Source of the DNA: a virus | Lineage: Duplodnaviria > Heunggongvirae > Uroviricota > Caudoviricetes | IMG/VR virus record: IMGVR_UViG_2671181012_000022 | Strand: one strand, 5' to 3' | Length of the DNA: 42,877 nucleotides | Shown: one piece after another, positions 9,001 to 15,000 of the stretch | Layout of the letters: each line of letters opens with the position of its first letter | How positions within the stretch are numbered: position 1 is the stretch's first letter | Program-made: the position numbers

Positions 9001-12000
9001 CATGGCCCACAAACGGCGGATGAGCTGGCACTTATGTTCGGGATTACCTCCCGCCGGGCGAATTCATCGCTGGCCATGGCAATCAGCAAAGGGCGTCTGA
9101 TTCGCGTAAATCAGGGCGGTAAATTTCGTTACTGCATACCGGGCGCTGATTTACCGGCAGAGCCGGAAGCTGCATCCGTAGCGGACACCGATGGTAAAGC
9201 CTTTCCTCAGCCAGCAGGTGTTGCGTTACCAGTCTAGGAAACGACGACACAGGAAGAAATGAAAACAGAAATCGTGGAAGACATTGTGAAGTTACAGCCA
9301 TCGGTCACCGAAACGAAAGTAGATGACCTGATTTTACCATCGCTGCATGTGGCTAACCGCGAGCTGCGCCGGGCAAAAGGTCAGGTTCAGAAGTGGGAGC
9401 GAGTCTGCGCCGCGCTGCGGGAGCTGAACAAGTGCCGGGATATTCTCCGGGATATTACCGCCACCAGAGAACAGCAGCGGTGAGTGGGTGGAAGACGTGG
9501 TGCCGGGCTGAAATTCTGATACTCCGGCAGTGCGCGGGAACAATGAAGGTAAAAAGCATTGGCGCGCTTATCGGACGAACTGAAGCGGCAGTGAGAACGA
9601 AGGCACGGGAGCTGGGCATCAGTATGATGTTACGTGGTGATTTTCACCCGTCGGCAAAATATTCTCAGCGTGATATTGAGCTGGCGCGGCAACTGCATCA
9701 GAGAGGCATGCAAAGAAGGGAAATTGCCAGAAAATTAGGCATGCCGCTGCACATAGTGAATAACTACGTTTATTTCGACAGGAGGGTTCAGGCGTGAGGG
9801 TGAGAATTTATATCGCCGGTCCAATGACGGGATATGAAAATTTCAACCGCGAGGCATTTCACAGGGCGGAAGAAGCACTGAAACGGGAAGGGCATACCGT
9901 TTTAAACCCGGCAGTACTTCCTGACGGGCTGACACAGCCGCACTACATGGATATTTGCATGGCAATGATTCGTTGTGTGGATGCGATTTACATGCTGAAT
10001 GGCTGGCAGCGGTCAGCGGGCGCTAAGGCAGAGCTGGCACTGGCGGAGAAACTGGGGCATGCGGTGATTTATCAGGAGGTGGCTCAATGAGAGAGGTTAA
10101 CTATGAGGCGCTTCGTGAGGCAGCACAAAACTATCAGTCGACGCTGGCGTGGTATCAGGCTATCCCGGACAGCCCAAATGCTGAACGGGATTGTGATGCG
10201 GCTCTTGCTGCGTTTAAGCGTCACATCCGTCATCGGGAAGCGGATATTATCGCTGATTTGCTGGATGGACTGGAAGAAGCAAAATCACAACTCAACGAGC
10301 AACGTGAGTATTACGAAGGTGTTATCTCGGATGGGAGTAAGCGCATTGCTGAACTGGAAGCGCGGGAAGTTCAATTACCGACTCGCTACGACCTTCGATA
10401 TGGACACCCGATAAATGCAGATGAGCGACAAGTCATGATACCTAAAGAAAATGGCAGTTGGCTTTACCTGATTGACCTAGAACACGCATTACGCGTCGCT
10501 GGCATTCGCATCAAAGGAGAGGAGCATGGAAATAAAACCAGAGGATGAGTTAAGCAATATCGTTTTATTTCCGGTAAAAGAGGATGACCCTCGTAATCAG
10601 GTTAATTTTCTTTATGAGCCATCGGAAAGACCATATTGTCATCACGCCTCTGTTCGGGTTGACGAAAAAGAGCGTCAGGTCCGCTGTAAATCTGCGGTGC
10701 AGTTGTGGAGCCGTTTGACTGGATGCTCTCTGTGGCGAAAAGAGAAACCAGACTGGCAGATGATGTAAGGCTATTGCGCCAGGAGGAACAGGAAAGGCGG
10801 AAAAATATAGAAAAGTTAATTCAGATTGAGCGTAACGCGAAAGCGCGGATACGCAGGGCGACAAAATCCAGAACTGAATAAATAAATTTAGCGCTGTAAA
10901 TAAAATCTAATCCTTAACTGGAGGTATATTTATGTTAAATACACAGAAATCCATTAATGCGGAAAAATATAACGAGTGGGCAAGAAAATTCTCTGAGCAG
11001 ATTTTTAAAATTACTGGCAATGAGAATGCGGCAAAAAATGAATTAGAACCGTGGACGCCTGAAGGAGCCGACCCAAATTATTGCTGGAGGGAGGTTGATC
11101 CAGTTGATGCTGCAAATGAAGATATGAGTTATCACAACGATTAATGTCAGGAGGCCGCCCGAAAGGGCGGTAATGAATGGTCACATTATTTAGAAAAAAA
11201 TATCCGCGAAAGAGTAGAACAACAGAATTTCTGTTTCTCATTCTGTTTATCGTGTTGATGATACCGATATCCCCGTTAATCCTAGTCTGGATAATCGGAA
11301 AAATAATTGAGCCAGTTATTGAATTGTATAACGACGTGGTATGGGCGTCATTCAACACACTGCACAATAAAATTAATCCGTATAAGGAAAGCTGATATGG
11401 CACTGACGAAAAAACAACGCGCAGAACTGCGCATGAAGTTCGGTGGTCGCTGTGCTTATTGCGGCTGCGAACTTGGCGAAAAGTGGCATGCAGACCATGT
11501 AAAACCGGTCATTCGTTTTGATGGAAATATGCTTCACCAGGAACGTGACGATATATCCAACATGGTTCCGGCATGCCACCCATGCAATCTGCACAAGCAT
11601 TGCAGTAGTCTGGAAGATTATCGGCGAATTATCAGTGATGGTCGTCGTGAATTCCTTGCGTCCGGGAAAGGCAAAGCGCTGGTTCGTATGGGATTGGTTG
11701 AAATGAAATCTGACCCGGTTGTGTTCTGGTTTGAAAAATATCAAGAAGGGGCTACGGCATGACGACTTTTACCAGAGAGCAGTTAATAGCTCACGCAGAG
11801 GAGACTATTGAAGCACAGAGACTGTGCATACCGGGCACAATCGACCATGACATCATCCGCACATATAAGATGGATATTGCTGTTCTGGAAATCGCACTGG
11901 TATCGCTGGCAGCAGAGCCAGCCGGTAAATTGCATGAATACAAACCAGTGGGATATCAGCGTCTGGTCGATGAGTTATCTGGAGCGGAACGGACTGATAA

Positions 12001-15000
12001 GCGTGGAGGATATTTTACGATGACCTGGCCTGAAGCATTAACAACGGTAGGAATTGCGATGGCGGTGGCGCTGGTGGTGTATTCGATTTGCCGCTGGGGA
12101 TAAAAACGGTTTGCGGGAAAAGGAGAGTTAAGTAGAATTGCAGCGGGTGCTTGAGGCTATCTGTCTCAGGCATGAACACCAAAAGGCAGATAGAGAAAAG
12201 CCCCAGTTAACATTACGCGTCCGGCAAGACGCTTAACATTAATCTGAGGCTCAATCTATGAACGGCAAATCTAGGTTAGCCTCTTACGAGCCGAAAGGCA
12301 AGGAGAAGCAGGCTATGAAGCAGCAAAAGGCGATGTTAATCGCCCTGATCGTCATCTGTTTAACCGTCATAGTGACGGCACTGGTAACGAGGAAAGACCT
12401 CTGCGAGGTACGAATCCGAACCGGCCAGACGGAGGTCGCTGTCTTCACAGCTTACGAACCTGAGGAGTAAGAGACCAGGCGAGGGAGAAATCCCTCGCCA
12501 CCTCTGATGTGTCAGGCATCCTCAACGCACCCGCACTTACCCCGTTTCGGCAGACTTTGTTTTTTCCTGGCATTCTGGTTTACAATTCGCACGTCAGCCT
12601 GAACAACTGGCACCTGCTGCGTCACCGGAGAACCCGATGGCGCAACATATAAAATCCCACAATTCTGAAGTCGATCCGACCATTAAGCGGGGGCGGCGTT
12701 CACACGTATTTAAAACCGACTGGTTCCAGCATCCCCCATGCACTGAAGAACAGGCCGAATGGCTGATCCAGTGTTACCGCAGGCGCGGATATGAGTTTGA
12801 GAAAGCCCTCAGCTTCGATCGTCGTCACTGGATAATCTCCGTCAGGCTCCCTTATTCCGAACGCCCACCGCGTCCGTCCCGCACATTCCAGCAGCGCATC
12901 TGGAGGTAACGTGCGGGTATTACTTCGACCTGTTCTGGTACCGGAACTCGGTCTGGTTATCGTTAAGCCAGGCCGTGAATCAATGTCAGTATTCCATAAC
13001 GGCAGAATATTGGTGGAGCCGGAACCGAAAAACATGCGCGGTCTGCCGTCCGGAGTCGTTCCTGCCGTTCGCCAGCCGCTGGCAGAGGATAAAACATTAC
13101 TGCCATTTTTCAGCGATGAGCGGGTTATTCGTGCAGCAGGTGGTGCAGGTGCACTGTCTGACTGGTTATTACGTCACGTGAAATCCTGCCAGTGGCCACA
13201 CGGCGATTATCATCACAGCGAAACCGTCATTCACCGTTATGGTACCGGCGCGATGGTGTTGTGCTGGCACTGTGACAACCAGCTGCGCGACCAGACATCA
13301 GAATCACTCGATCAACTTGCTCAGCAGAATCTGGTTGCCTGGATGATTGATGTCATCCGTCACGCAATAAGCGGTACGCAGGAGAGGGAGTTATCGCTGG
13401 CCGAATTATCCTGGTGGGCGGCCTGCAATCAGGTGGTGGATGCACTACCTGAGGCAGTAGCGCGTCGTTCGCTGGGATTACCAGCGGAAAAAATCCGCTC
13501 CGTATACCGTGAGAGTGACATCGTACCGGGAGAACAGACAGCCATCAGCATACTGAAGCAGCGCACAAAAAATATTGCGCTGCCACTTCACGTCCACCAG
13601 CAACAAAATCCACCACAGAAAAAAACGGTTGTCAGTATCGCCGTTGATCCGGAGTCTCCTGAATCGTTCATGAGGCGGCCTAAACGTCGCCGTTGGGTTA
13701 ATGAGAAATACACGCGCTGGGTAAAGACACAGCCGTGTGCGTGTTGTGGTAAGCCAGCTGACGATCCACATCACCTGATTGGTCATGGTCAGGGGGGAGT
13801 GGGAACAAAGGCCCACGATATTTTCACGCTACCGTTGTGCCGGGAGCACCACAACGAACTTCATGCAGACCCGCTGAAGTTTGAGAAAAAGTACGGCTCT
13901 CAGATTGAGTTAATTTTTCGTTTTCTTGATCACGCCTTTGCGACTGGCGTGCTCGGGTAAAAGAGGTGACTGATGCTCATAGATTTGGTTTTACCTTACC
14001 CGCCGACGGTGAACACTTACTGGCGACGCCGTGGCAGCACATATTTTGTATCAAAAGCCGGGGAGCGTTATCGCCGGGCAGTGGCGCTTATTGTTCGCCA
14101 GCAGCGACTGAAATTAAGCCTGTCCGGACGGCTGGCAATAAAAATTATTGCAGAGCCACCGGATAAGCGCCGCCGTGACCTGGACAATATTCTGAAAGCA
14201 CCGCTGGATGCGCTGACGCACGCGGGGTTGTTAATGGACGATGAGCAGTTTGATGAAATCAATATTGTACGTGGCCAGCCAGTATCTGGTGGACGGCTGG
14301 AGATAAGAATTACAGAGGTGGGTGTGCATGAATAGCCAGTATTTACAGTTTGTTCGTGAGCAACTCATGATTGCCACTGCGGATCTCAGTGGGTCGACAA
14401 AAGGCCAGCTGGAAGCCTGGCAGGAAAATGCCCTGTTCGATACAGGGCGTTACAGACGTAAAAAAATTCGTTACCGCGATGAGGTAACCGGAAAAATGAT
14501 CACGCGGGATAATCCACCGATCCCGGGCAAACAATCACTGGCGAAAGGGACGTCAATTGCTCTGGTCAGTCCGGTTGAGTTTGCAACATCATCGTGGCGG
14601 CGTGCCGTTCTGGAACTGGAAGAACATCAGAAGGCGTGGTTACTGTGGTGCTACAGTGGAAATGTTTGCTGGGAAGATCAGGTCACCATAACACAGTGGG
14701 TGTGGAGTGAATTTAAAACTCAGTCCGGCTCCAGAAAAATTGCAGTGAAAACGCTGGAGCGTGTGAAGAAGTTGATCTGGCTGGCGGCACAGGATGTCAG
14801 AGGATGGGTTACCGGGTGTGAGGTCTACCAGAGACAGGAGCTTGCCAGACTGTGTGGAGTTAAGCCTGATAACTGGAGCCATAATTATGCGAACTACTGG
14901 CGTGAGATGTGCGATATTTTTAAGCGCCTCGATAGAGAATCCTTGATTTGCTCCGTGAAAATAAGAGCGCAACAAAAAGCGACCTTTTCACGACGAGATA

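Follow-up and report, generated by a model that had tools for sequence, protein, structure and literature searches.

The DNA stretch analysed here, IMG/VR virus record IMGVR_UViG_2671181012_000022 (42,877 nt; 'the window' below always means this whole stretch), is an Escherichia coli lambdoid prophage. The interval under study, 10880-12103, carries three linked small genes, which encode a DUF4014 family protein, an HNH nuclease and a 114-aa open reading frame (ORF). A preliminary description, made from the sequence alone, had taken these genes for an AT-rich cassette forming one operon, in which a nuclease lies between two membrane proteins as in some abortive-infection modules. We found that the three genes are not a unit and that the 114-aa ORF is a frame fusion of a soluble phrog_660 gene to a membrane mini-ORF, made by an 80-bp deletion. 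The interval is very likely a mosaic run of small accessory genes in the rightward early operon, in the stretch bounded by replication gene P and antiterminator gene Q, and not a dedicated three-gene system. The three ORFs themselves are real:

11177-11395, + strand: 72-aa DUF4014 family protein whose N-terminus is basic and whose single transmembrane helix spans about residues 17-41
11397-11762, + strand: stand-alone HNH (beta-beta-alpha-Me) nuclease, 121 aa, with a helical C-terminal extension after the core
11759-12103, + strand: 114-aa ORF, a chimera with a C-terminal hydrophobic segment (Kyte-Doolittle 2.16) and no Pfam match

The spacing is also as it had been described: a 1-nt gap separates the TGA at 11393-11395 from the ATG at 11397, and the HNH gene and the 114-aa ORF overlap in an ATGA at 11759-11762.

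To see how the genes co-occur, we surveyed 5,426 complete E. coli genomes, IMG/VR contigs, sequenced phages and the loci of orthologues in other genera. The HNH core was present in 385 of the E. coli genomes; DUF4014 was contiguous with it in 217 of these 385, and in 191 the N-terminus of the 114-aa gene was. Of the 5,426 genomes, 182 contain 80% or more of the whole interval. Each flank is far more common without the nuclease: at least 791 genomes carry DUF4014 without HNH (1176 minus 385), and the 114-aa gene is found in at least 379 that lack the HNH core. DUF4014 occurs in 127 phage records, while only four phage records cover 80% or more of the interval; in phage 933W an unrelated 95-aa gene follows DUF4014. 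Among 80 IMG/VR contigs with an intact 114-aa gene, a complete HNH gene lies upstream in 21, and most of the others have only the last 35-56 HNH codons, joined to another gene. In one HNH-less locus (L127), DUF4014 is followed in turn by an 87-aa gene, a 55-aa gene whose end is formed by the last 14 HNH residues, the 114-aa gene, the mini-ORF and hok.

Genes of 55-61 aa of this kind stand in several HNH-less loci (L127 4706-4873, L003 2363-2548, L004 2384-2551). They consist of the N-terminal domain of phrog_60/3323-type proteins followed by the last 14 HNH residues, a scar of the replacement of HNH by recombination.

Outside E. coli the association disappears. We compared neighbours of the HNH gene in the best 80 plus 36 loci of ∼700 homologues; at the 29 loci outside E. 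coli with HNH orthologues of 36-91% identity, no DUF4014 or 114-aa homologue was found nearby. Membrane-like neighbours were seen upstream in none of 26 such cases and downstream in one of 27. In the places returned for Citrobacter, Yersinia and Klebsiella (61-86% identity) the neighbours were Ead/Ea22, NinB, DUF7739, DUF551 and others, mostly of nin-region type, and never DUF4014. BLASTP gave no match between the N-terminus of the 114-aa protein and the genes downstream of HNH in other genera; PHROG profiles pointed to a loose shared relationship of phrog_60/5117 type, a family that is abundant throughout such regions. The preliminary description had itself named unrelated neighbours in most relatives as what would speak against an abortive-infection module; such neighbours are what we found, and on this ground the abortive-infection reading fails.

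The tight spacing has another source. The 3′ junction of DUF4014, AAGGAAA(G/A)CTGA(T/A)ATGGCA (window 11373-11397, aligned with loci L127, L006 and L001), precedes three unrelated genes: the HNH gene, the 87-aa gene and L0066 of 933W. At the other end, the ribosome-binding site of the next gene and its ATGA start lie within the last 45 nt of the HNH gene; in PhiR49_2, 689R5 and L127 the same 45 nt belong to a different upstream gene. As these junction sequences are common to unrelated genes, it is the boundaries that account for the 1-nt gap and the ATGA overlap, and neither is evidence of functional coupling. The conserved boundaries are sites of module exchange: each would supply the gene that follows with its ribosome-binding site and start codon, so that genes could be swapped there by recombination. 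Module exchange at short conserved boundaries is the usual lambdoid pattern, and mosaic nin and ea regions are familiar from comparison of phages lambda, HK97 and P22. The likeness of the interval to the mosaic accessory genes of lambdoid phages is close: the genes are small, tightly packed and co-directional between P and Q, they occur in many combinations, junctions are shared by unrelated genes, and the block is found in the exo-int region of phage ArgO145 as well. Nothing essential differs; peculiar to the present case are the deletion-derived fusion and the adjoining hok/sok locus.

The third gene had been described as encoding a tail-anchored membrane protein. A hydrophobic segment does lie at the C-terminus; this anchor, though, arose when the 80-bp deletion fused a separate mini-ORF to the gene. 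The ORF is composed as follows:

11759-11977, + strand: native N-terminal part of the phrog_660 protein, residues 1-73, with the phrog_660 match over residues 1-67 only
11968-11977, + strand: sole remaining copy of the 10-bp direct repeat CGATGAGTTA, which marks the junction of the 80-bp deletion
11978-12019, + strand: 14 codons, residues 74-87, in which the old 3′ end of phrog_660 is read out of frame
12020-12103, + strand: 27-codon membrane mini-ORF, residues 88-114, the 'tail anchor' of the fusion and a separate ATGA-coupled gene in relatives

When the C-terminal 44 residues were used in a tblastn search, the matches in relatives were displaced downstream by 80 nt, a number not divisible by three. 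In ArgO145, PhiR49_2, 689R5 and an IMG/VR contig, 80 bp lie between two copies of CGATGAGTTA; alignment showed that these 80 bp are absent from the window. The intact form, as in ArgO145, consists of a soluble 114-aa protein and a separate, overlapping 27-codon ORF. The window ORF covers only positions 3-63 of the 193 in the phrog_660 profile and does not reach its conserved C-terminal segment, whereas the intact ArgO145 gp10 matches the profile end to end, including positions 145-193 (the last 49), with E-value 8e-43. The deleted form is rare: exact-pattern scans of IMG/VR found the deletion junction in three contigs versus 91 for the intact junction, all 11 full-length rows sampled across 516 complete E. 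coli genomes had the intact form, and only the three best matches to the interval were colinear with the window. A slipped-strand deletion between the 10-bp repeats would have destroyed the conserved phrog_660 C-terminus and would have joined what remained, through the 14 out-of-frame codons, to the mini-ORF, giving the appearance of a tail-anchored protein.

The mini-ORF itself looks like a real gene. It is a free-standing 27-aa ORF in ArgO145, where it is not annotated, and in L127 (L001 8293-8376, L127 5211-5294). Among its 22 DNA variants, distinct substitutions fall 19 times in the third codon position, 11 times in the first and 3 times in the second; 18 are synonymous and 15 non-synonymous, with mostly conservative replacements (V/A/M/L/I), a pattern that suggests purifying selection. 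The distance from the mini-ORF to a downstream hok homologue, where there is one, is ∼240-550 nt; in ArgO145 the place of hok is taken by a relBE-like pair. A homologue with 78% identity runs across the 3′ end of an unrelated DUF551 gene in another locus (L008). A look-up of the 27-aa cluster seemed to offer natural tail-anchored DUF551 proteins; these were rejected, as the fetched representatives did not contain the sequence, bar one 31-aa partial entry, and the hits were an artefact of short-protein clustering. A milder, though improbable, alternative to our reading would be that the mini-ORF is an overlooked small membrane protein tied functionally to the adjacent hok/sok or relBE-type loci.

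The genes probably do not form an operon of their own. In the E. coli chromosome to which the interval is 100% identical, the prophage adjoins ompW, and the RefSeq gene order is integrase, excisionase, exonuclease, dicB, the repressor region, YdaT, a DnaT-like protein and P, followed by DUF1627 (with an internal stop), a DNA-binding protein, DUF4406, Ead/Ea22, a frameshifted gene and p70, and then by DUF4014, HNH, the 114-aa gene, hokD, DUF968, RusA and Q. As it is placed between P and Q, the interval is a nin-equivalent region and part of a long co-directional array; this array runs uninterrupted on the + strand from the replication genes to Q and includes all three genes. ORF listing of 10500-12600 gave four + strand genes: p70 and the ORFs of 72, 121 and 114 aa. 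No + strand promoter-like site was predicted between 9000 and 13186 in a scan for sigma-70 consensus sites, which bears on whether the cassette has a promoter of its own and is expressed in the lysogen. Given this gene order and the lack of internal promoter or terminator signals, we infer that p70, DUF4014, HNH and the phrog_660 gene would be transcribed with all their neighbours during lytic development, in the rightward early transcript. ArgO145 carries the same gene block in its leftward early region, between exo and int.

The description as AT-rich holds for a part of the interval only. The GC fraction is low in p70 (0.385) and DUF4014 (0.356), and in HNH (0.484) and the 114-aa ORF (0.493) it is near the window mean of 0.512; the low-GC stretch begins upstream of the interval, at about 10200.

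The assignment of the second gene to the HNH nucleases was correct: its product passes the Pfam gathering score (PF01844, 28.2 bits against 21.4) and matches phrog_2118 with E-value 9e-57. The zinc ligands (C19, C22, C60, C63) and catalytic residues (D33-H34, N55, N64) are present, and all eight positions are invariant in a 61-sequence family alignment; therefore, the zinc finger and the active site are intact. A confident AlphaFold2 model, with a predicted local distance difference test score of 91.6, has the beta-beta-alpha fold (strands in residues 31-59, then a helix at 61-67) and shows C-terminal helices after the core. Foldseek searches with it against the PDB returned generic HNH cores only, with template modelling scores of 0.5 or less (Cas9 HNH domains, Cap5, Geobacter prophage HNH 4h9d, McrA, PtuB), and so gave no closer indication of function. 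Comparison with NCBIfam gave sub-threshold matches only (IscB, retron HNH). No extra DNA-binding domain was recognisable beyond the short helical tail in Pfam, in the model or by Foldseek. The ∼700 homologues are of roughly 115-140 aa, and the named sources among the best matches are mostly Enterobacterales, with some other Proteobacteria. The protein is probably an active nuclease working alone.

That the gene could be one of the free-standing HNH genes of nin regions had been offered as an alternative in the preliminary description, and this alternative was borne out. The family lies between replication genes and Q in four of five Yersinia places, in the Klebsiella place and in at least two of the five Citrobacter places returned; exceptions are L222 (with integrase and tail genes), L221 (by the terminase) and L218 and L220 (no Q in the 8 kb fetched). 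In Yersinia the orthologue overlaps the end of NinB. After phrog_2118, the next PHROG matches include endonuclease VII families (phrog_1035, E-value 2.8e-12; phrog_2914, E-value 2.6e-8). Because of the location among NinB, NinG and RusA-type genes and these endonuclease VII-annotated matches, one could tentatively suggest that the nuclease serves DNA processing in recombination-dependent phage replication alongside those genes, a role that we prefer to the others considered and that we put somewhat short of an even chance. The resemblance to T4 endonuclease VII-like and other phage HNH families consists of the PHROG matches and of the position among recombination genes in relatives; the similarity, however, is limited to the catalytic core. 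Literature searches on HNH endonucleases in the lambdoid nin region and on free-standing HNH in lambdoid prophages found nothing, and the ArgO145 papers listed, judged by titles and abstracts, do not treat these genes.

The main alternative, which would account for the patchy distribution between conserved flanks, is a free-standing selfish endonuclease of homing type, which cuts HNH-less nin or ea alleles and spreads by their repair. Such an element should be sporadic, and the gene is present in few genomes, between far commoner flanks formed by the same DUF4014 and 114-aa genes. E. coli copies are all at least 90% and nearly all at least 95% identical, the gene has the same immediate flanks in leftward and rightward early operons, and its 3′ scar is found in HNH-less loci. 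Yet these loci have the 87-aa and 55-aa genes in its place, which is module replacement and not a simple insertion at an empty site; an additional DNA-binding domain was not recognisable; and patchiness with recombination at boundaries is the norm for all small genes of the region. We regard a homing-type element as unlikely.

Several observations weigh against the mosaic reading, and some of them are also what a defence module would have in its favor. About half of the E. coli HNH copies keep DUF4014 directly upstream. A Shigella sonnei entry (P0002, 194 aa) is an in-frame DUF4014-HNH fusion. The exact fusion protein made by the 80-bp deletion is found on 466 contigs of a large protein collection and is thus stably inherited in a lineage; being fixed there, it could have acquired a function. 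A partnership of DUF4014 and HNH within E. coli is formally still conceivable; shared descent explains their linkage equally well, since the E. coli copies are nearly identical. As to P0002, the stop codon and the 1-nt gap are lost in it; the entry comes from a single 3-kb contig and may reflect a frameshift or a sequencing error.

In an abortive-infection or superinfection-exclusion module, DUF4014, perhaps together with the anchored third protein, would sense infection or restrain the HNH protein, and the released nuclease would degrade DNA. In accord with this, an intact HNH gene has a membrane protein encoded 1 nt upstream, an arrangement kept in 217 of the 385 E. coli HNH loci and, in Shigella, even present as one ORF. 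In PADLOC the HNH protein has weak matches to the Septu PtuB and PDC-M01B models (best E-value 3e-8), and toxin-antitoxin loci are nearby (hok/sok here, the relBE-like pair in ArgO145). These matches, however, are to the generic catalytic core of HNH alone; PADLOC gave no match for DUF4014, for the 114-aa ORF (fused or intact), for the 27-aa ORF or for p70, and the domain search on the flanking proteins which the preliminary description had proposed identified DUF4014 and phrog_660 and no defence model. The likeness to Septu PtuB and retron I-A HNH effectors is weak and confined to the HNH core (TIGR02646, 21.8 bits against a cut-off of 52 bits); a PtuA ATPase partner is missing, the score is far below the cut-off and the protein has half the length of PtuB. 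Orthologues in other genera do without membrane neighbours, and DUF4014 does without HNH in the many E. coli genomes and phage records counted above. Three unrelated genes follow one and the same DUF4014 junction, the deletion that created the second membrane protein is rare, and the genes would belong to a lytic early transcript with no promoter of their own predicted. A defence module of this kind is, in our opinion, very unlikely. Highly improbable, too, is the narrower proposal that, in the Stx-like prophages of E. coli, DUF4014 and HNH make up an exclusion module of two genes, with the membrane protein gating the nuclease, or, separately, that the fusion is a new membrane-anchored protein under selection in one lineage.

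Least probable of all is a terminase-associated packaging cofactor needed for cos cleavage, which we can practically set aside. Such HNH proteins have been described (HK97 gp74; Gmet_0936, 4h9d) (PMC3592412, PMC3765158), and the nuclease shares with them a small stand-alone phage HNH architecture of similar size (121 aa) with two CxxC pairs ([CxxC]2 zinc HNH); prophage HNH Gmet_0936 is also its best sequence match among solved structures, a weak one (E-value 0.058). Against this, the HNH gene lies 16 kb from the terminase genes (TerS at 27496) and away from cos, and the C-terminal helical extension is peculiar to the family of this nuclease. The canonical position, immediately upstream of TerS, is occupied in the window by a different gene for a 121-aa HNH protein, 26841-27206. 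Between that protein and the nuclease of the interval there is no significant similarity (E-value 0.17), and they are unrelated beyond the motif; with that site already taken by an unrelated HNH, a packaging role is unlikely. In most of the other places returned the orthologue is in the nin region away from the terminase, the Citrobacter locus L221, with a terminase ∼1.2 kb downstream, being the exception.

To return to the mosaic run and its first gene, the call of a small membrane protein was right. PF13198 is matched with 88.5 bits (cut-off 23.2) over positions 1-71 of its 72, phrog_1832 is matched as well, and a single strong hydrophobic segment reaches a 19-aa Kyte-Doolittle mean of 3.0 at residues 19-37. 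DUF4014 would thus be an independent small inner-membrane protein. Some phage records label its homologues 'acetyltransferase inhibitor' or 'released from the phage upon host infection'; these are annotations only, and literature searches on DUF4014 and on the PHROG label 'released from the phage upon host infection' found nothing.

A stem-loop had been noted in front of this gene, and it was found one base away from the position given:

11149-11171, + strand: Shine-Dalgarno-like AGGAG(G) (11149-11154) and a GC-rich hairpin of 7 bp capped by a GAAA loop (11154-11171); 5 nt separate its end from the DUF4014 start codon

The fold of its 61-nt context is predicted at −19.7 kcal/mol (z = −3.6), and none of 200 shuffled sequences folds as well. 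As an intrinsic terminator the hairpin was rejected: it has no T-run and was not called by the terminator scan. It is present in ∼49 loci irrespective of the upstream gene and travels with one class of DUF4014 5′ ends; recurrent variants preserve the pairing (G.U to A-U, C-G to U.G), and compensatory double changes in the hairpin were not seen because diversity is low. The Shine-Dalgarno motif is 22-23 nt from the start codon, and the hairpin in between would bring it to ∼5 nt; in other DUF4014 alleles an ordinary AAGGAG is found at a distance of 6 nt from the start. Since the hairpin is tied to the DUF4014 5′ end, its variants keep the pairing and other alleles have the ordinary motif, a hairpin-bridged ribosome-binding site is the best fit, and translation of DUF4014 is probably helped by it. 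Hairpin-bridged sites are known from genes 38 and 25 of phage T4, where, as in the fold predicted here, a stable hairpin separates a distant Shine-Dalgarno motif from the start codon. A difference from the T4 genes is that the 3′ arm, GGGCGGU, itself resembles a Shine-Dalgarno sequence, so that the hairpin, instead of bridging, may mask a ribosome-binding site (the GGCGGU pseudo-Shine-Dalgarno).

Two further features belong to the surroundings:

10932-11144, + strand: p70, a 70-aa acidic soluble protein (phrog_4659, E-value 5e-48), within the interval and not among the three genes first described
12145-12470, + strand: hok/sok type I toxin-antitoxin locus, directly downstream of the cassette and context to it

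For p70 there was no match in Pfam, PADLOC or NCBIfam, and the gene is missing from many HNH loci. The hok/sok locus is supported by Rfam sok (110 bits against a threshold of 59, 12145-12320), by Hok/Gef PF01848 (81.6 bits) and by the RefSeq annotation hokD; a mok-like leader starts at 12258. The relBE-like pair of ArgO145 stands at the hok/sok position on the opposite strand, which makes this a toxin-antitoxin swap site. One record titled 'Actinobacillus phage vB_Apl-pPE4' (PP818812.1, L005) has DUF4014 and hok genes of E. coli type, with 90-94% identity at the protein level; its megablast pieces are 95% identical to the query, and the Actinobacillus host assignment looks doubtful.

Two other genes of the prophage, a little upstream, are damaged: the phrog_1621 gene at 10526-10881 is broken by a frameshift into ORFs of 80 and 58 aa, and RefSeq records an internal stop in the DUF1627 gene (∼8767-9483). 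These lesions and the 80-bp deletion suggest that the prophage is decaying. HNH-type nuclease genes number three in the window: 11397-11762, 26841-27206 and 12911-13960, the last encoding a DUF968 protein with a C-terminus like HNHc_6. Elsewhere, a 113-aa ORF (26126-26467) between the lysis and packaging genes has a TonB C-terminal domain (PF03544, E-value 6e-15). Downstream of Q are three tRNA genes and two copies of the STnc100 small RNA (16677-16923, 18048-18254, 18534-18744), followed by a SASA-family (NanS-p-like) esterase; the layout resembles that of Stx phages, and no toxin genes are annotated there.

For every gene of the interval there is a described family and an annotation in public genomes. 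What the analysis adds is a caution: in a lambdoid early region, tight spacing and a nuclease between two membrane proteins can stem from shared recombination boundaries and a frame-shifting deletion, with no functional coupling between the genes. By-products of the work are a membrane mini-ORF of 27 codons, conserved and seldom annotated, that precedes a toxin-antitoxin locus; a hairpin, likewise conserved, that separates a Shine-Dalgarno motif from the DUF4014 start codon; and a well-defined stand-alone HNH family, found so far mostly in the nin regions of enterobacterial prophages.

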